DNA of 24,000 nt from a bacterium (GTDB lineage: Bacteria > Patescibacteriota > Minisyncoccia > Phycocordibacterales > UBA5272), in contig JAYWGA010000020.1 of NCBI GenBank assembly GCA_043778525.1, positions 7,317 through 31,316 on the forward strand, given 5' to 3'. The translations under genes were made by a program, and so were the position numbers. The notes under the pieces were generated by a model, which worked only from the letters and a program-made list of their open reading frames with translations, did not search any database and was not told the origin of the DNA. This document shows positions 2,478-24,000 of the stretch, in pieces. Each line of letters opens with the position of its first letter. Position 1 is the stretch's first letter.

Positions 2478-2564
2478 GTTTTGCTTTTTTATTTATCTAA
2501 TCTAATTTTATATAAATAGTCTAGCAGATTTTGTTTTGTTGGTAAATACTGTTAGCTTGTTATG

Positions 2565-2573
2565 TGGTATAAT
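2565..2573 (+). promoter_or_regulatory. Extended -10 promoter (TGGTATAAT) for the RhuM/ATPase operon
   Basis: A perfect TGnTATAAT lies downstream of the track's ATG 2562, which argues that ATG 2586 is the real start and the 5' UTR is about 5 nt. Confidence 0.5.
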
Positions 2574-2585
2574 TATATAAAGTAT

Positions 2586-3608
2586 ATGCAATCAAATTCA
2601 GAGATTATAATTTATAATGACAAAAATGGTGATGTAAAACTTGATGTCCGTTTTGATGGCGAGAGTGCATGGCTATCTCAAAAAATGATAGCAGAGCTCT
2701 TTGGGGTTGACGTTCGCACAGTAAGTGAGCATATACAAAATATTTTTGAAACTAAGGAATTACAGGAAATTTCAACTATCCGGAAAATCCGGATAGTTCA
2801 AAATGAGGGTACAAGAGAGGTTTCTCGTGAGGTTTCGTTTTATAATTTAGACGTTATTATTGCTACGGGTTATAGAGTAAATTCTGTTCTAGCCACACAG
2901 TTTCGTATTTGGGCGACCACAAGGCTGAGCGAATACATCAAAAAAGGCTTTACCATGGATGATGATAGATTAAAGGGTATAGGTGGTGGCAATTATTGGA
3001 AAGAGCTTTTAGATCGCATACGCGATATTCGTAGTAGTGAAAAAGTACTTTATCGCCAAGTGCTAGATCTGTATGCGACAAGCATAGACTATGATGCAAA
3101 AAGTGACGAGTCAGTACTTTTTTTTAAAACAGTACAAAATAAATTGCATTATGCTGCAAATAAACATACAGCAGCCGAGACTGTGCACTCTCGAGCTGAT
3201 GCACAAAAAGATTTTATGGGACTCACTACTTTTAAGGGCACACAGCCTGTATTGTCTGAAGTCCGCATAGCTAAAAATTATTTGAATGAAGATGAAATTT
3301 TTATATTAAATAGAATGGTCTCCGCCTTTTTTGACCTCGCCGAAATAAAAGCCAAACAAGAAACGAAAATGCACATGAAAGACTGGGTAGTGGAGCTAGA
3401 TAAATTTGCTGCGAATTATGGTAAGGGGATATTAAAAGACTCTGGAACAGTAAGTCATGAGGAGGCTTTGGTAAAAGCAGAGAGCGAATATAGAAAGTAT
3501 CAAGTAAAAACACTCTCGCCAGTGGAAGAGGCCTATTTAGAAAGTATTAAGAGCATAGAGAGGAAGGTAGAGGTGAAAATTAACAAAGAAAATAAATGTT
3601 ATGATTAA
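2586..3608 (+). CDS. rhuM: RhuM-family protein (virulence protein RhuM family, PF13310-like)
   Basis: The N-terminus matches the characteristic RhuM signature: SEIIIYNDKNGDVKLDVRFDGESAWLSQKMIAELFGVDVRTVSEHIQNIF...YNLDVIIATGYRVNSVLATQFRIWATTRLSEYIKKGFTMDDDRLK. The start was moved from 2562 to 2586 because of promoter position. Confidence 0.85.
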   Translation: MQSNSEIIIYNDKNGDVKLDVRFDGESAWLSQKMIAELFGVDVRTVSEHIQNIFETKELQEISTIRKIRIVQNEGTREVSREVSFYNLDVIIATGYRVNSVLATQFRIWATTRLSEYIKKGFTMDDDRLKGIGGGNYWKELLDRIRDIRSSEKVLYRQVLDLYATSIDYDAKSDESVLFFKTVQNKLHYAANKHTAAETVHSRADAQKDFMGLTTFKGTQPVLSEVRIAKNYLNEDEIFILNRMVSAFFDLAEIKAKQETKMHMKDWVVELDKFAANYGKGILKDSGTVSHEEALVKAESEYRKYQVKTLSPVEEAYLESIKSIERKVEVKINKENKCYD

Positions 3609-5754
3609 AAAGATTATAAAAATTAAAAATATTGGTAAATATGATATACCGTCAGTTAATGAGGAAGACTTTTTTGGTATAAACACTCTAATTTTTGGCG
3701 CTAACAAAATAGGTAAAACTACGCTAGTAGCAATTCTCAGATCCTTAAGAGAAAATGATGTATCTATAGTTTCAAGTAGAAAAACATTTGGAACTTCAGC
3801 AGAGGAAAAGCAAGAATGCGAAATTGTTTGTGATGATGGTACAAGATTCATATATAATTCCTCGTGGTCATATAAAAATATAGAAATTTTTGACAATGAG
3901 TTTATAAATAGAAATATTTTTATTGGAGATAAGATAGAGCAAGGGCATAAAGCCCAGCTGCATAAAATACTGATAGATGAAACAAATTTAGGATTACAGA
4001 AAAATATAAATTTAGAAGAAATTCAATATGCACAATTAATTTTTGATAAAGAGCAAATTAGAAACTCATTGGGAAAAAATTTTAATGAATTTATTAAATT
4101 TAAAGATTCAGATGAGATTTTAGACGTTGATATAAAGATCAAAAACAATCTCAATAAACGTAATCAGTACAATAATCATAAAAAGATTAATCAGCTTAAA
4201 GTTTCGACAAAGCTATCTTTTAATTTTTTAGATTTTGAAATAAAAATTGAAGAAGATATTGACAACAATTTAGAAAAAATAATTAAAAAACATATTGAGA
4301 ATTGCTGGAACATTGAAGATAAAGATTTTAGTTTTCTAGCAATGGGTGTAAATAGAATATCTAATAATAAAAATTTATGTCCTTTTTGTGGCCAGGGGTT
4401 AGAAAATGTTTCTGAATTAATGTCTAATATGAAAATATTTTTTGGTGAAGCTTATAAGATGACACAAATGTCAATTGAATCATCTATAAAATCTTTTAAG
4501 TCGATTGATATAGAGAAAGAGATTGCGCAATTTAAAGCGGAAGGATTGGAATTTTTAAATTTTTCTAATGCAAAGGACTTAGCTGGTTCCTTTGATGTTA
4601 TTATTAAAAAACTTGATCAAAAGCAAAAAGATTTATCCCTTGATATAAAAATTAAAGAAGTGCCTGAGTATAATAACTTTAAGTCAGCAATACAAGCAAT
4701 CTATGTTGAATTAAATTCTCAAAAAATTGAATCTATGGAAATAGGCATATTAGAGAATGAAGAACTTTTACTAAAATTAAACAAAGAACGCTTTACTGTT
4801 GATGTAAATAATAGATTTAGAGAATATGCAAATATTGAAAAAAAATTGCTGATAAAAAAAGTACTCATAGACAAATTAAACGAAGAACTCAAAGTAGGTC
4901 TTAATGGTTTGTTCAAAGACTATTTATACGAGATTAATCTGATACTGAGTAGCTCTTATGCAAATTTTAAACTTACAGAACTTAAGTCTTTGTCAAACAG
5001 GACATTGAAAGAGTCATTTTTTTGCGACTATGCTTTTATTTTTGACGATAGCCACGTCATAAACATCTTAGATGAAGAATGTAAACCTCAGTTTAAAAGT
5101 ACATTAAGTGATTCCGATAAAAGAATCTTTGCTTTTGCTTTTTTTATTGCAAAGCTTAAAAAAGACAATTTATTAACCAGTAGGATAGTCATCTTAGATG
5201 ATCCATTTACAAGCTTAGACGAGGAAAGGAAAGACACTATGATAAATATTTTAAATAAACTAGCTTGTAAACAGTTGATTGTTTTGTCGCACAGTCGCAC
5301 TTTTATTAAGAGGTATCTTTCAATCTTTAAATCGAATGAATCAGACAGCTCGAAAGAAGTAAAGTCTTTAAGACTTATAAACTGCCTTTCAAAAAATAAA
5401 ACAAAAATTACTAATCTGGATATTGAAATAGACAATGATTTTCTTGAAGGTATTGAAAAATATTTAAATACATTAAATAGAGCAAAAATTGAATCTATAG
5501 AATCAGACTATGATAATATAAGAAAAATTATTGAATATATAGTAAAGGCAAAATATGGATCCCTACTGAGTGTTGAAGAGAGGAGAATGCCAATGAGATA
5601 CTTTAATAATCCAAATTGTAAATCTCAAATGAAAGATGAGATAAAAGAAAAGGATTATCAGGAAAATCACCACGACTTAAACAACCAGCCTTCACCAGAA
5701 GAGCTAATCAGTAAAAAAGATTATTTCATAGATAATGTACTGCCATTTATTTGA
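3601..5754 (+). CDS. AAA_13-type ABC/SMC-like ATPase with coiled-coil zinc-hook insertion and PrrC/RloC-like C-terminal domain (candidate anticodon nuclease)
   Basis: Walker A GANKIGKTT (aa 33-41). A long K/E/N-rich predicted coiled coil spans about aa 115-470 and contains CPFCGQ (aa 260-265). ABC signature-like LSDSDKR (aa 502-508), Walker B IVILDDPFTSLD (aa 529-540), H-loop VLSHS (aa 561-565). The C-terminus carries NIRKIIEY (R641-x3-E645) and ENHHD (H690/H691). The start ATG overlaps the rhuM stop (ATGATTAA). Confidence 0.8.
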   Translation: MIKKIIKIKNIGKYDIPSVNEEDFFGINTLIFGANKIGKTTLVAILRSLRENDVSIVSSRKTFGTSAEEKQECEIVCDDGTRFIYNSSWSYKNIEIFDNEFINRNIFIGDKIEQGHKAQLHKILIDETNLGLQKNINLEEIQYAQLIFDKEQIRNSLGKNFNEFIKFKDSDEILDVDIKIKNNLNKRNQYNNHKKINQLKVSTKLSFNFLDFEIKIEEDIDNNLEKIIKKHIENCWNIEDKDFSFLAMGVNRISNNKNLCPFCGQGLENVSELMSNMKIFFGEAYKMTQMSIESSIKSFKSIDIEKEIAQFKAEGLEFLNFSNAKDLAGSFDVIIKKLDQKQKDLSLDIKIKEVPEYNNFKSAIQAIYVELNSQKIESMEIGILENEELLLKLNKERFTVDVNNRFREYANIEKKLLIKKVLIDKLNEELKVGLNGLFKDYLYEINLILSSSYANFKLTELKSLSNRTLKESFFCDYAFIFDDSHVINILDEECKPQFKSTLSDSDKRIFAFAFFIAKLKKDNLLTSRIVILDDPFTSLDEERKDTMINILNKLACKQLIVLSHSRTFIKRYLSIFKSNESDSSKEVKSLRLINCLSKNKTKITNLDIEIDNDFLEGIEKYLNTLNRAKIESIESDYDNIRKIIEYIVKAKYGSLLSVEERRMPMRYFNNPNCKSQMKDEIKEKDYQENHHDLNNQPSPEELISKKDYFIDNVLPFI

Positions 5755-14156: not shown

Positions 14157-14570
14157 ATGCTAAAGTTTTATTTTAAAGTGCGCAAAAGGGTGACTAGTGT
14201 TAGGAAGCGGACACGAAAGAAAAATAGTATAAAAAGCCAAAAAGACTATATAGAGCATAAGGAAATGGCGAGAGTGCTAGTCCTGGAGAGGCTAGAGTAT
14301 TTTAATCAATTTTACAATTTAAAATGGGGCAGGGTATCTATTAAAAATGTAAAGACGCGCTGGGGCAGCTGCTCTTCTAAAGGCAATCTCAACTTTAGCT
14401 ACAAAATAATAAAGCTAGCGCCGCATCTAGCTGACTATATTATAGTGCATGAGCTATGCCATCTGAAGGAGATGAATCACGCGCAAGCTTTTTGGGACTT
14501 GGTAGCACAGCAAATGCCAGAGTACAAGGCATTAAAAAATGAGCTGGCTAAAATTAAACTATATAACTAA
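14157..14570 (+). CDS. YgjP-like (DUF45 / M48-SprT-like) zinc metallopeptidase, short form
   Basis: Matches the DUF45 signature ending in the HExxH metal site: RWGSCSSKGNLNFSYKIIKLAPHLADYIIVHELCHLKEMNHAQAFWDLV. 137 aa. Confidence 0.8.
   Translation: MLKFYFKVRKRVTSVRKRTRKKNSIKSQKDYIEHKEMARVLVLERLEYFNQFYNLKWGRVSIKNVKTRWGSCSSKGNLNFSYKIIKLAPHLADYIIVHELCHLKEMNHAQAFWDLVAQQMPEYKALKNELAKIKLYN
14529..14556 (+). repeat. Left copy of a perfect 28-bp direct repeat (gcattaaaaaatgagctggctaaaatta), inside the 3' end of the ygjP-like gene
   Basis: Identical letter-for-letter to 15072-15099. It encodes ALKNELAKI in the ygjP-like reading frame. Confidence 0.95.
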
Positions 14571-14579
14571 GCCACAATA

Positions 14580-14588
14580 TGATAAAAT
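14580..14588 (+). promoter_or_regulatory. Extended -10 promoter (TGATAAAAT) for the MazF-like gene, leaderless-type spacing
   Basis: It ends 6 nt before ATG 14595 and lies inside the repeat-bounded insertion. Confidence 0.4.
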
Positions 14589-14594
14589 GTAGAT

Positions 14595-14978
14595 ATGAAA
14601 GATTTTAATGCATGGAGCGAGGTCAAAAAATCACAAGACGATAAAATTAGAAATGTATTTTGCAAAGAGCGTGATATTTGGTGGTCTACACTTGGACTAA
14701 ATATTGGCGATGAGGAAGATGGTAAGGGTGAGTTATTTGAAAGACCGATCATTGTAATTAAAAAATTTAATAATAATATATTTTGGGGATGTGCTTTGTC
14801 TACTAAAATAAAAGATAATAATAAGTATTATGTAAAAGTTAAAACTAAAGAAGGTGTGCAGTCTGTGATAATTTCTCAGCTGCGCTTATACGATACAAAA
14901 AGACTTGGAGAAAAAATAGATGTAGCAAGTAAAGAAGATTTTGAAAAAATAAAAACAGCAATTAAAAATTTGCTGTAA
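14595..14978 (+). CDS. PemK/MazF-family toxin-like protein (orphan; no adjacent antitoxin ORF seen)
   Basis: RDIWWSTLGLNIGDEEDGKGELFERPIIVIKKF matches the MazF/PemK core 'GeIwwv.lG.n.G.Eq.G..RPvlVi'. Later SQLRLYDTKRLGEKI matches 'sQirtid..Rl..kiG'. 127 aa. Confidence 0.7.
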   Translation: MKDFNAWSEVKKSQDDKIRNVFCKERDIWWSTLGLNIGDEEDGKGELFERPIIVIKKFNNNIFWGCALSTKIKDNNKYYVKVKTKEGVQSVIISQLRLYDTKRLGEKIDVASKEDFEKIKTAIKNLL

Positions 14979-14992
14979 TTATTGTTATTACC

Positions 14993-15010
14993 CGAGAGAT
15001 TTCTCTCTCG
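14993..15010. other. Perfect 7-bp stem / 4-nt loop hairpin (CGAGAGA-TTTC-TCTCTCG) downstream of the MazF-like gene
   Basis: Seen directly in the sequence. There is no U-tract on either strand, so a role as an intrinsic terminator is uncertain. Confidence 0.3.
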
Positions 15011-15071
15011 AAAGCCCGGAGGCATTTGTATCTATAATATTATACGAAAACAATAAATAAGTCAAGGTAAT

Positions 15072-15099
15072 GCATTAAAAAATGAGCTGGCTAAAATTA
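15072..15099 (+). repeat. Right copy of the 28-bp direct repeat; overlaps the stop codon of the minus-strand deacetylase gene
   Basis: Identical to 14529-14556. Read in the + frame it continues as ALKNELAKIILK-stop (TAG at 15108-15110), which looks like the ancestral 3' end of the ygjP-like gene. Confidence 0.95.
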
Positions 15100-15933
15100 T
15101 TTTAAAGTAGATTTTTTAGCTGGAAAAAGCTCGTAAAATAATCCCATATTACTATTTATGTTGTACCTATTTAATTTAAAGATATCTTTTTGCGTATGAT
15201 AGTTACCATAGCTATCCGACACTGCCGCTATGTAGCCAGCCTCTTCTACTATTTTCGTGACGGTAGCATTTGTGAGGCCATAAGGGTATGAAAAAATATT
15301 TACAGGCTTGCCTATTTTGTCTTCTAGTATTTTTTTACTTCCAGCTATTTCTCTTTCTAGTATTTTTGTGTCTGTTATTTTATTTAGTTTTGGATGAGAG
15401 ACGGTATGCGCTCCTATGGTCATATTATTTTTATCCATATCTATTATATCTTTCCAGCTCATGGCTATGGGGTAGTTTTTATTTATGGCTTTAGTATAAA
15501 TAAAAAAGTTTGCTCGCAAATTATATTTTTTAAGTATAGGGTAGGCATTTGTGTACTGATTTCTATAGCCATCATCAAAAGTGATAATGACTGGATTTTC
15601 GGGAAGTGGCGTATTTTTATTTAAATTATTTACTAGATCATCAAAACTTATAATACTATAATCATTTTCTTTTAGATACTTCATCTGGGTTTCAAAAATA
15701 TTTATAGGCGTGATAAATTCTTTTGCAAAAATATTATCTTTTTTATTAAAATCTCGCACTTGATGATAGGTGAGTATCACCACTTTTGTACTAGTACTTT
15801 TTGTAAAGTTTTGCTCAAGAGTTTCTAGCTTTACCTCAGATATTTCAAAAGGTGTCTCACCAGGGTAGGCAAAGGTGGCTTGTGATAAACAGATAACAAT
15901 AAAAAACGAAATTACTTTAATAATTTTTTTCAT
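15097..15933 (-). CDS. Polysaccharide deacetylase family protein (NodB/PgdA-like), secreted
   Basis: Signal peptide, then NodB motifs ITFDDGYRNQYTNAYPILKKYNLRANFFI and IGAHTVSHPKL. Confidence 0.9.
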   Translation of the reverse strand: MKKIIKVISFFIVICLSQATFAYPGETPFEISEVKLETLEQNFTKSTSTKVVILTYHQVRDFNKKDNIFAKEFITPINIFETQMKYLKENDYSIISFDDLVNNLNKNTPLPENPVIITFDDGYRNQYTNAYPILKKYNLRANFFIYTKAINKNYPIAMSWKDIIDMDKNNMTIGAHTVSHPKLNKITDTKILEREIAGSKKILEDKIGKPVNIFSYPYGLTNATVTKIVEEAGYIAAVSDSYGNYHTQKDIFKLNRYNINSNMGLFYELFPAKKSTLK

Positions 15934-15994: not shown

Positions 15995-16753
15995 TTATAA
16001 TTTTTTATATTTACCATTTCCTAAAAATTCTATATAATTTTTATCTCTCAGTAATTGTAATTGCTGCCTAAGTTTATCCTTTATGTGTTTGTTTTTAGTA
16101 AATATTTCCTCAAGTCTTGCTTTGTGCTTGTAAATATCTTGAAGTGTAAAATAGTTTTTACACTTGTCTACGATTTTTAAAACTTCAAAAGCCCATCCAC
16201 GTTTTTCTAAATTATCTATTTTAAAATTTTTAGTCTTATTCCAGTTTTCTTTTATAATCTTTTTATCTACGATTTCTCCATTTTTAATTAAAAAGATTTT
16301 TCCAATATCAGGTATTTCAGAATAAAGTATATTGCAACCAATCCAACCAGCCCTTTTAGCCGTATTTGAAAGTGGTTTTCTTTTTTCTATAATATTTTCA
16401 GTAAAAAAGTATTTGGGTATTGCTATCACATCTCTTACTATAAAATTTGCATTATAATTTAGAAAAATGAGATTGGGGTTATTGTTAGAATTAACTCTAT
16501 TTATCATTGTACTGTATGCACCGTCCACAATTTTTTTTGATACCATTCCTTTCTTTGATTTGAGTTCAAATTCTTCTTTACAATTTGAACAGTAAAAATC
16601 TGCGACAGGTGAATTGTTTTCAAATTGAGTTAAATTATTTAGACAGCTAACACAGTATCCGTTTTCTAGATACCAAGGCTCAGTCATCACTCTAGCTTTT
16701 TGTGAAGAGCTTTTGTAATCTGTACTTGTATATTTTTCTAAAGATAATGTCAT
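15995..16753 (-). CDS. dpnC: DpnI-type methylation-dependent type IIM restriction endonuclease (G-m6A-TC specific family)
   Basis: Collinear similarity to my recollection of S. pneumoniae DpnI over the whole length. Shared segments: YKSSSQKARVMTE, YC.SC.N.L..FENN.PVADFYC..C.EEFELKSKKG, DGAY.TM..RV...NNPN, RKPL..TA.RAGWIGCNI, and the C-terminal wHTH end NKHIKDKLRQQLQLLRDKNYIEFLGNGKYKKL. Confidence 0.9.
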   Translation of the reverse strand: MTLSLEKYTSTDYKSSSQKARVMTEPWYLENGYCVSCLNNLTQFENNSPVADFYCSNCKEEFELKSKKGMVSKKIVDGAYSTMINRVNSNNNPNLIFLNYNANFIVRDVIAIPKYFFTENIIEKRKPLSNTAKRAGWIGCNILYSEIPDIGKIFLIKNGEIVDKKIIKENWNKTKNFKIDNLEKRGWAFEVLKIVDKCKNYFTLQDIYKHKARLEEIFTKNKHIKDKLRQQLQLLRDKNYIEFLGNGKYKKL

Positions 16754-16794
16754 TTAAAATTTGTTAGCTTATATTTTTCTCCTATAAATAAATT

Positions 16795-17628
16795 TTATTC
16801 ATAGTCATTGATATTAATTGTATTTAGTTTTTGAAGGCCATATACAGGATCTTCTAAAAATTTTTTGATAAAATACTTACCTTTATTCGTCACTGATATT
16901 TTGTCTTCTTTTTGATCTATTTCTATAATCCCATTACTATGGCAATAGGCTAATATGTCTTTTGGAATTTCGAATTGTACTTCGCCACTAAAATTATTTT
17001 TTTCTTTTACTTTAGCATTTTTTTCATAGTAGGATTCTATAATTTTATCAAACTTATATGAAAAATTAAGCACTTTAAACTTTTGATAATCACGTATCCA
17101 TTGTATCGTGGGATCTGTTTCTTTTATAATCTTCTCTAATTGAGACCTATTTATTTCTGCTGTTTTTTTCTTAACCTCTTCACTTAAGATGGCGTTTTCA
17201 GATTTTATAACCTCAACCTCTTTTTTATTCCGTGCTATCTCAGCGTCTTTATGTTTCGCATATAAAAAATCGTATAAAGATTTTTCATCGAAGCTATTAA
17301 ATTTCTTAAATACTATTGAATAGATGATAGCGCTTATAAAAACTGGAATTAAATATATTGATACATAAATATTTATTTTTTCTAAAAAAAGATAAGTATT
17401 ATTTTTTATAAAATCTGGAAGAGCTGTATACTTACTCCAATTAGAATAAACTAGCTTGTCTGCTATGTCTGCTCTTCCAAAAAATATGTATAGAATAATA
17501 CCTTTATTCCAGAGTATAAAAGATAAAATATAAACTCTAAAAACAGAAGACGTAGGAGGGCTATTTAAAAAATCATACATTAAATCTGCCCAGCTTTTAT
17601 TCTTATCCACAATTTGAGATTCACTCAT
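16795..17628 (-). CDS. Hypothetical membrane protein: 2 predicted TM helices + coiled coil + C-terminal winged-helix-like domain
   Basis: 277 aa. Hydrophobic segments VFRVYILSFILWNKGIILYIFF and IYVSIYLIPVFISAIIYSIVF, then a charged heptad-like stretch (KDAEIARNKKEVEVIKSENAILSEEVKKKTAEINRSQLEKIIKE). The C-terminus ILAYCHSNGIIEIDQKEDKISVTNKGKYFIKKFL resembles a wHTH. It lies 41 nt upstream of dpnC on the same strand. No family recognised. Confidence 0.6.
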   Translation of the reverse strand: MSESQIVDKNKSWADLMYDFLNSPPTSSVFRVYILSFILWNKGIILYIFFGRADIADKLVYSNWSKYTALPDFIKNNTYLFLEKINIYVSIYLIPVFISAIIYSIVFKKFNSFDEKSLYDFLYAKHKDAEIARNKKEVEVIKSENAILSEEVKKKTAEINRSQLEKIIKETDPTIQWIRDYQKFKVLNFSYKFDKIIESYYEKNAKVKEKNNFSGEVQFEIPKDILAYCHSNGIIEIDQKEDKISVTNKGKYFIKKFLEDPVYGLQKLNTININDYE

Positions 17629-23151: not shown

Positions 23152-24000
23152 TTATGCAAAAGATTTTGCCATTACAGCATTAAATAACTCATCGACCATT
23201 TGAGTTGATTGAAGCTGCTTCTCTTTTTGAACTTCAATCCCCTTAACTAATTCCGCAAATTTATTTTGTAATTCAATTGGAGACAAAGAGATAATAAGAT
23301 TTTTTATAATAGTCGAATTCCATCCTTCCATGATTGCACCCTTAGAAACATTTCGAGTCTGTTTTCTAACCTCATTGTCAAAAAGTAACGATGCCCACAA
23401 ATAAACAGGGTTCAATCTTGTCTTGTTTGTGGTAATTACGCACAAGTGCTTAGTACTCATGCATTTTGGTAAATCATCTGGAGCAACCACAACTCTACCA
23501 ACAGTTCCCATTATCGTTACCAGTACATCACTAGGGTGAACTTGAAATTTTATAAATTTCTTGAATTTTTCTTCTGGGAGACATCTTTTATATGTCCATC
23601 TAAATTTATTCTTTACTACATTATCTATACCTAAAACAGGGACACCAACCTCTGTAAATTCATGGTGATGCAACTGGCTACCGAAAGGGCCTGTTCTTAT
23701 TGAGCTTTTATCAATGACTAAATTAACAATCTTATCTTTAGGATATGCTTCTTTGCTAAAAAAGTTTTCAAATAAATCAGTTACAAGATCTTCCATTTTC
23801 TTATTTGCCTCAGCTCTCTTATTTTTCAAATCCTCAGCTTCTTTAATAAGAGAAACGATTCGTTTCTGCTCATTCAGATCTGGATTACCTTTTGTATCTG
23901 TTGGAATAGGTACAGTGATTTTTTGTACATACACTTTTGAAATATGTTTAAGTCCTGCACCTTTAAATCCTGTATCTAATATGTGCTTGTTACTTAGTAA
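23152..24000 (-). CDS. hsdS: Type I restriction-modification specificity subunit HsdS, C-terminal part (5' end beyond the window)
   Basis: Central conserved region I.VPIP...EQKRIVSLIKEAEDLKNKR followed by a target-recognition domain (GPFGS...VPVLGIDNV...) and a C-terminal conserved helix (PIELQNKFAELVKGIEVQKEKQ). The frame stays open upstream of the track's GTG through position 24000 (LLSNKHILDTGFKGAGLKHISK...). Confidence 0.9.
   Translation of the reverse strand, partial: LLSNKHILDTGFKGAGLKHISKVYVQKITVPIPTDTKGNPDLNEQKRIVSLIKEAEDLKNKRAEANKKMEDLVTDLFENFFSKEAYPKDKIVNLVIDKSSIRTGPFGSQLHHHEFTEVGVPVLGIDNVVKNKFRWTYKRCLPEEKFKKFIKFQVHPSDVLVTIMGTVGRVVVAPDDLPKCMSTKHLCVITTNKTRLNPVYLWASLLFDNEVRKQTRNVSKGAIMEGWNSTIIKNLIISLSPIELQNKFAELVKGIEVQKEKQLQSTQMVDELFNAVMAKSFA

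Follow-up and report, generated by a model that had tools for sequence, protein, structure and literature searches.

How did a gene for a MazF-like toxin come to lie between the 3′ ends of two convergent genes, and is it really without a partner? These are the questions raised by a locus in a 24,000-nucleotide stretch of a patescibacterial genome (contig JAYWGA010000020.1 of assembly GCA_043778525.1; 596 kb, 75 contigs, 35% GC), the whole of which we refer to as the window. The toxin gene occupies a unique segment of 515 bp (14557 to 15071) that is bracketed by a perfect 28-bp direct repeat. We consider it likely, with some reserve, that this segment is a self-contained module made of the toxin gene and a convergent small RNA (sRNA) gene, whose product is the probable antitoxin, and that the repeat is the footprint left by the insertion of the module.

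The repeat, GCATTAAAAAATGAGCTGGCTAAAATTA, is found at 14529 to 14556 and at 15072 to 15099. The similarity extends 3 nt further to the left, which gives 31 nt from 14526 and 15069 with one mismatch (G/T). A search of the whole assembly that allowed up to 4 mismatches retrieved two copies only, so that the 28-mer is confined to this locus. The left copy (31 bp from 14526) encodes ALKNELAKI of a YgjP-like protein with a metallopeptidase domain (137 amino acids; 14157 to 14570, plus strand; PF01863, E = 3e-35), and the last 3 nt of the right copy (31 bp from 15069) are the stop codon, 15097 to 15099, of a polysaccharide deacetylase gene convergent with ygjP (15097 to 15933, minus strand; PF01522, E = 6e-30). 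The right copy also reads on in the ygjP frame to ALKNELAKIILK and a TAG at 15108 to 15110 (...AKIILK, then stop). The present ygjP gene takes its last four codons and its stop (KLYN, then stop) from the insert, and this stop lies within a junction stretch of about 18 nt (14557 to 14574) that, in an alignment of five module copies, is common to no other copy. When the two flanks are joined in silico, they reconstruct an empty site with a tail-to-tail overlap of 14 nt between ygjP and the deacetylase gene, and its junction would read ...TACAAGGCATTAAAAAATGAGCTGGCTAAAATTA directly onto TTTTAAAGTAG. The module would have entered this overlap of the two convergent genes and duplicated 28 to 31 bp of the target, leaving each gene with a complete 3′ end. 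A preliminary description of this DNA had proposed the same course of events; the repeat around the unique segment, the in-frame continuation and the enclosed deacetylase stop are all borne out by the sequence, and the insertion with duplication of the gene junction is supported by the footprint and by the ends of the module.

The segment has no inverted repeats at its ends (14557 and 15071), and a listing of its open reading frames (ORFs) includes no integrase, transposase or protein antitoxin; as previously noted, a recombinase is encoded neither in nor beside it. The GC content of the insert (28 to 32%) is no different from that of its flanks. The arrangement is 100% identical on 12 public contigs obtained from various samples with different assemblers and k-mer sizes, and it is therefore not an assembly artifact. 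These contigs, retrieved through exact matches to the deacetylase and toxin proteins, represent one clone, and every one of them is occupied.

The identification of the ORF between the repeats as MazF/PemK-like was confirmed by domain, profile and structure comparisons. The toxin gene (127 amino acids; 14595 to 14978, plus strand) matches PF02452 (PemK_toxin) over residues 25 to 126 (E = 4.3e-11; 43.4 bits, cut-off 23.1). A profile built from 29 relatives matches MazF, EndoA and PemK in the PDB at an E value of about 1e-4 and spans the whole domain of Staphylococcus aureus MazF, Bacillus subtilis EndoA and Bacillus anthracis MoxT. When an AlphaFold2 model of the toxin (predicted local distance difference test score [pLDDT], 72; predicted template modeling score [pTM], 0.62) was compared with the PDB by Foldseek, the best 50 matches were all MazF, EndoA, PemK or MoxT structures (template modeling [TM] score, 0.6 to 0.74); as modeled, the protein has the SH3-like barrel fold of MazF and Kid. 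Residues R50-P51, which align with the Arg-Pro motif of S. aureus MazF, are invariant among the relatives, as are S69 and K73. PADLOC and NCBIfam returned no match for either the toxin or YgjP. The host genome encodes three more MazF paralogues (contigs C55, C69, and C45) and one fragment (contig C60).

To place the toxin in a wider context, 80 loci with toxin relatives (L051 to L130) were collected from species-representative genomes. The relatives are encoded by Saccharibacteria, other Patescibacteria, Gracilibacteria, Rickettsiales, Bacteroidota, Chloroflexi, and others. At the window, an extended −10 promoter, TGATAAAAT (14580 to 14588, plus strand), ends its hexamer 6 nt before the ATG at 14595, which is the leaderless layout recognized earlier. 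A −10-like hexamer peaks at this same distance of 6 nt in 31 of 81 family loci and a Shine-Dalgarno-like motif occurs in 2 of 81; the leaderless layout is therefore a trait of the family. No ORF for a protein antitoxin fits between 14571 and 14594, no small ORF is present in the segment, and most of the 80 related loci have no small ORF directly upstream of the toxin gene. The module shares with MazEF and PemIK (Kis-Kid), which are toxin-antitoxin (TA) systems of type II, a toxin of the same family and fold with an aligned Arg-Pro motif, but it differs from them in having neither an upstream or overlapping protein antitoxin gene nor an operon. Its toxin gene has a leaderless promoter of its own, and its conserved partner is a convergent sRNA gene.

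This gene lies on the minus strand at 14945 to 15031 and encodes a predicted sRNA of about 55 to 87 nt (minimum free energy of the 87-nt form, −27.8 kcal/mol; z = −5.9). Its strong sigma-70 promoter (15037 to 15065, minus strand) consists of a −35 box TTGACT (15065 to 15060), a 17-nt spacer and a −10 box TAATAT (15042 to 15037). Downstream follow, on the same strand, a 5′ motif CAAAU (15028 to 15024), hairpin H2 (15023 to 15014; GCC/UCCG/GGC), and hairpin H1 (15011 to 14992; 8 bp with a GAAA loop). A terminator scan places a third hairpin at 14976 to 14955 with a U-run to 14945, which extends over the final ∼30 nt of the toxin ORF and doubles as the coding sequence of the conserved toxin C terminus ...KTAIKNLL. 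The 7-bp hairpin of the preliminary description is therefore present at 14992 to 15011, though it is no mere hairpin but H1 of the convergent gene. The toxin can no longer be regarded as an orphan, since it is accompanied by a conserved convergent sRNA gene with a sigma-70 promoter of its own, whose product is its likely antitoxin. In the genome, the combination of promoter, CAAAU, and stable fold has exactly three matches, each facing a full-length MazF paralogue (one of them the window, contig C20). A comparison with Rfam gave a best match of E = 0.4, and all matches were far below the gathering scores of the families.

Conservation at the nucleotide level extends to the final codons of the toxin gene (...K T A I K x L L, then stop), both in the window (14955 to 14976) and in L052, L051, L053, L133, L137, and L141; these codons form a hairpin behind which, on the opposite strand, a U-run follows. 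Judged from these sequences, the C-terminal coding sequence of the toxin seems to double as the sRNA terminator in this subclade of Saccharibacteria.

The sRNA gene accompanies most members of the toxin family, across phyla. Almost all collected loci have a noncoding element of about 90 nt directly downstream of the toxin gene, and in 67 of 79 loci this element reads, on the opposite strand, as TTGACA, a spacer of 16 to 17 nt, (TG)nTAnnnT, 7 nt, CAAAU, H2, a linker, a GC-rich H1, and a U-rich tail, which ends near the toxin stop codon. Structure conservation was measured by a register-free parse. The pairing of H2 is kept through 21 different stem sequences (GGG/CCC, GCC/GGC, GGCC/GGCC, UGGC/GCCA, CGAC/GUCG, and others), and H1 takes 56 sequences, all of them far more stable than their shuffles (median z, −5.5).

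The layout varies at some loci. In L089, L057, and L107, the sRNA gene, or else its promoter, is present once more upstream of the toxin gene, which is thus flanked by sRNA genes on either side (in L089 at 2299 to 2348 and 2888 to 2936, both minus strand); these loci are tandem or remnant modules. Many patescibacterial copies have a conserved upstream block of about 55 nt (..CTTTAnAAnnnCTTTATGAAAAnTTTnGGG..TTTGnTAGnnT); the left part of the module is therefore longer in that clade of Patescibacteria.

An experimental counterpart exists on plasmid pVir of Campylobacter jejuni 81-176, which encodes a homologue with 40% identity to the toxin (CJJ81176_pVir0047; 30634 to 31038). Dugar et al. (2013; PMC3656092, Tables S5, S12, and S14) detected by Northern blotting a 77-nt RNA, CJpv3, that runs from 31119 to 31043 on the minus strand of pVir, and its transcription start site is very strong, by far the strongest in its neighborhood (PMC3656092). 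CJpv3 is convergent to pVir0047 and ends 5 nt past its stop codon, a layout like that of the window, although its 5′ end is longer than the consensus from the candidate phyla radiation (CPR). Its authors listed it only as a candidate sRNA lying between two genes annotated as "hypothetical" and did not relate it to a toxin or to a TA function (PMC3656092). A plasmid copy from Nitratiruptor has the exact consensus architecture of the sRNA. The literature searched yielded no account of an RNA partner for a toxin of the MazF family.

The convergent sRNA is probably the antitoxin of the MazF-type toxin. It might instead be a chance product of the downstream region, the toxin being truly solitary, with a bidirectional terminator and a promoter-like stretch behind it, and either serving a role outside TA systems or being neutralized from elsewhere. 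This AT-rich DNA is indeed rich in promoter-like matches (14 versus 5 expected in a stretch of 1.3 kb), no Rfam family matches the element, and CJpv3 is without a demonstrated function. However, the register of −35 box, spacer, −10 box, 7 nt, and CAAAU is kept in about 85% of the loci, in phyla of very different GC content; the stems covary; all three occurrences of the motif in this genome face MazF paralogues; and in pVir, the counterpart exists as a discrete and abundant RNA of 77 nt. We accordingly regard a solitary toxin as improbable.

As for how the sRNA would act, two modes come into question. The one that we favor is that of a type III-like pseudo-substrate that binds the toxin directly: an RNA that opens with a conserved single-stranded CAAAU and continues with hairpins would inhibit the MazF/PemK endoribonuclease. 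What speaks for direct binding and against antisense pairing is the conservation of a fixed 5′ motif and of covarying stems, neither of which pure antisense action would need. Convergent, 3′-overlapping antisense antitoxins are known in type I systems of Firmicutes. By this precedent, the sRNA could be a type I-like antitoxin that anneals to the toxin mRNA at its overlapping 3′ end, leading to decay of the message or to a block of its expression. The predicted RNA does overlap the 3′ untranslated region, and in this subclade the overlap includes the final ∼30 nt of the ORF, by way of the terminator hairpin that is coding as well. The overlap guarantees pairing but leaves the conserved 5′ CAAAU and the structure-preserving covariation unexplained. 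In many subclades, moreover, the RNA ends at the stop codon and the overlap is limited to the shared terminator. In addition, the toxins of type I systems are small hydrophobic membrane peptides and not RNases, whereas the protein here has 127 amino acids and a MazF fold, so that the likeness to type I systems is confined to part of the antisense layout. We hold an antisense antitoxin to be unlikely, if the most serious of the competing explanations.

Type III systems (ToxIN, CptIN, and TenpIN/AbiQ) likewise combine an endoribonuclease of MazF/Kid-like fold with a noncoding RNA (reviewed in PMC5086642), and direct inhibition of protein by RNA is the mode proposed for the present module. The differences lie in the RNA gene and in the toxin family. 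The RNA of the module is single-copy, downstream, convergent, and transcribed from its own promoter, whereas that of type III systems is an upstream tandem array in one transcript with the toxin; tandem repeats are absent both from the module itself and from the 600 nt upstream of its toxin gene. The toxin matches PemK and not the ToxN, AbiQ, or CptN families.

Where the module ends can be read from its copies elsewhere. Copies with 73 to 83% protein identity occur in five unrelated contexts: next to membrane-protein genes in genome G004, between a Mur ligase gene and recG in L137, in L133, on contig P0122, and in the window. The homology among the five runs from about 20 nt before the ATG through exactly the −35 box of the sRNA (GTCAA[G/T]), beyond which the sequences diverge. 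The right repeat copy begins 6 nt past this box, where the inter-copy homology stops, and the module copies elsewhere are without the 28-mer. Because the homology stops before the repeat, the repeat is target DNA and not part of the element. The repeat-bounded 515 bp is one complete module of two genes, toxin and sRNA, and nothing else, and the earlier picture of a minimal cassette with only a toxin does not hold.

A footprint of this kind was sought at 72 to 73 loci by comparing two stretches of 200 to 220 nt each, one upstream of the toxin gene and the other past the sRNA promoter. In 4 of 72 loci (the window, L128, L074, and L057), the longest exact words shared by the two flanks measured 28, 30, 31, and 36 nt, in no stated order, while the maximum among 600 cross-locus control pairs was 13 nt. 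By local alignment, 12 of 73 loci exceeded the 99th percentile of the controls. Three of these 12 repeats start at the −35 box of the sRNA itself and belong to tandem or remnant modules, such as L089 with its second sRNA copy. Another 7 are host-derived repeats that abut the module: the window (31 nt), L108 (34 nt), L128 (40 nt), L053 (39 nt), L074 (52 nt), L079 (18 nt), and L104 (97 nt, to be taken with caution since the left copy lies at a contig end). In L108 and L079 (Alphaproteobacteria/Rickettsiales), the neighbors of the module are again convergent, and both of their 3′ ends are contained in the repeat, as in the window. Across the family, the module is co-oriented with its upstream neighbor in 42 of 53 scorable loci and lies between convergent genes in 19 and between divergent genes in 3 of the 53.

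That the repeat might have nothing to do with an insertion, being a later local duplication within an older ygjP-mazF-deacetylase order or a product of assembly, is a thought prompted by its length of 28 to 31 bp, which is close to the usual k-mer sizes of assemblers, and by the fact that no empty site is at hand. Against it stand the identity of the locus in assemblies made from different samples with different programs and values of k, the coincidence of the repeat boundaries with the ends of the inter-copy module homology, the same footprint at unrelated sites, and the right copy, which restores an in-frame end to ygjP. We consider this explanation extremely improbable.

The flanking repeats of different sites have no common motif, and their lengths range from 18 to 97 bp; both features argue against a site-specific recombinase or transposase. 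The possibility of homing or of mobilization in trans by an integrase, raised in the preliminary description, finds no support. In its most concrete form, this possibility would make the 28-mers the cores of attL and attR and the segment a mobilizable cassette put into the 3′ end of ygjP by a tyrosine or serine recombinase encoded elsewhere. Site-specific integration typically duplicates the 3′ end of a gene, as in islands that target tRNA genes, and the genome does encode one tyrosine recombinase (contig C3) and one large serine recombinase (contig C51). Neither of the two is near the site, however; the repeats at sibling sites have neither a common motif nor a common length; the 28-mer occurs only twice in the genome and is absent from the other module copies; and the module homology ends before the repeat. 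An att-site origin is thus very improbable. The module also differs from transposons, insertion sequences, and miniature inverted-repeat transposable elements in being without terminal inverted repeats and in a duplication that is 18 to 97 bp long instead of short and fixed. It differs from integron cassettes in that its 3′ element is a promoter and an sRNA and not an attC site, with no integrase nearby, and from integron cassette arrays in that it is a single insert between housekeeping-type genes.

[quoted passage not shown] (2000) and extended by Furuta et al. (2010; PMC2853133). In these cases, the duplications often span a start or stop codon and are found mostly in naturally competent species, and the route needs no recombinase and has no known mechanism (PMC2853133). 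The module resembles them in being a small selfish unit without mobility genes that has single-copy target DNA directly repeated on its two sides, and in the repeats themselves, which are long, variable, and often placed over the start or stop of a neighbor gene that survives (PMC2853133). The remark that a 28-bp duplication far exceeds the transposase type was right, yet a duplication of this kind is not unprecedented, as this published class of long and variable target duplications attests. The class was described for RM genes and not for TA modules, and the RM cases were proven by empty sites in sister genomes (PMC2853133), whereas here the insertion is read from the footprint. Possible routes, offered as speculation, would be the fill-in of a staggered break or template switching while foreign DNA joins in. 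The repeat, the anatomy and conservation of the module, the MazF fold, and the recurrence of the footprint are shown by the data, and we infer from them the antitoxin role of the RNA, the direction and recency of the event, and its mechanism. What would be new is a TA module that uses the long-target-duplication route and a MazF toxin with an RNA partner. Whether MazF-family toxins with a single convergent sRNA antitoxin make up an undescribed class of TA systems, in which a dedicated sRNA with its own promoter and a conserved 5′ CAAAU inhibits a protein RNase, and whose modules of about 0.5 kb spread among tiny CPR genomes and others without a recombinase, copy tens of bases of the target, and can thereby settle between or even within overlapping gene ends without harm to the genes, is in our judgment evenly balanced.

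Several observations weigh against the reading of the segment as an inserted toxin-sRNA module. The comparison that had been suggested with related genomes did not yield an empty site: all 12 public contigs are clonal and occupied; in four genomes of the same genus and two of the same family there is no ygjP-deacetylase synteny, the two genes being apart in the same-genus genomes; and a search for the exact junction pattern in metagenomes of the Joint Genome Institute (JGI) gave 0 matches. The footprint is not universal, since no flanking repeat was found at the closest module copies (L052, L051, L133, and L137), and at 28 bp (perfect) or 31 bp (one mismatch), the repeat of the window is at the lower edge of the published criterion of >30 bp. 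On the side of the sRNA, the set used for the covariation of H2 and H1 had been prefiltered for two hairpins, which 58 of 79 loci pass; a covariance model (R1) of one sRNA subclass retrieved that subclass only (24 loci) and missed the variant of the window; and the pVir RNA begins 17 nt ahead of its TAAAU.

All that can be said of the age of the insertion is that it postdates the divergence from the species of the same genus. It is probably recent, because the noncoding right copy of the repeat is still perfect. YgjP homologues are present in 71 of 96 genomes of the family, and their C-terminal tails are too variable for the ancestral end of the protein to be told from them. In another genus of the family (L048, contig C76 of genome G011; 839 to 2266), a ygjP-like gene and a deacetylase gene adjoin in divergent and not convergent orientation. 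The pairing of the two genes may be older than its present orientation.

As a matter of routine, annotation treats "solitary" MazF toxins as type II toxins without a partner. If the partner is an sRNA, many such genes in the reduced genomes of uncultured Saccharibacteria, other Patescibacteria, and Rickettsiales would be complete addiction or defense modules of a new design, the same would hold for the copies on Campylobacter and Helicobacter plasmids, and MazF would gain a type III-like regulator. The locus offers a clean and apparently recent footprint of a module whose ends are known to within a few bases, and as we read it, this footprint documents the entry of a cassette without a recombinase into a gene-dense genome at the overlap of two convergent genes. 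It would extend a mode of mobility so far described only for RM genes and provide a compact substrate for studying its mechanism.

The surroundings of the module hold further genes of interest. Next after the deacetylase gene, at 15995 to 17628 on the minus strand, lies a gene for a DpnI-type methyl-directed restriction enzyme (PF06044 and PF17726; PADLOC mREase_II, E = 9e-93), followed by an ORF of 277 amino acids that matches no family except for a weak LmuC-like stretch. Contigs of the same clone (L037/L040 and L038) are 100% identical to the window up to about 17652 and then continue in two versions, one as in the window, with a DUF5681 ORF and an NTPase-like ORF of 1,421 amino acids, and the other with a gene of 610 amino acids; this point marks the boundary of a strain-variable island, 2.5 kb from the module. 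Further to the right, at 23152 to 23934, is a fragment of a type I RM specificity subunit. On the other side of the window, at 2562 to 5754 on the plus strand, a RhuM-family gene (PF13310, E = 4e-104) overlaps a gene for an AAA_13 ATPase of 717 amino acids, and the pair looks like a defense or anticodon nuclease-type module amid housekeeping genes (IF-2, YchF, and UppS).

Outside the window, the contig with the MazF fragment (C60; 2,196 bp) has four direct repeats of ∼110 nt with 90 to 93% identity, at ∼1 to 83, 574 to 689, 1256 to 1375, and 1864 to 1970. Each consists of a GC hairpin (GCAAAAGCCGGC-loop-GCCGGCUUUUGU, with varying loop and inner stem) followed by a promoter-like stretch, and the repeats occur on this contig only. 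The array and the module have no sequence relation. The cassettes between the repeats encode a truncated MazF-like ORF, a reverse ORF of 127 amino acids, and an antitoxin-like gene paired with a RelE/ParE-like one, and the whole resembles an integron-like or TA-cassette array.

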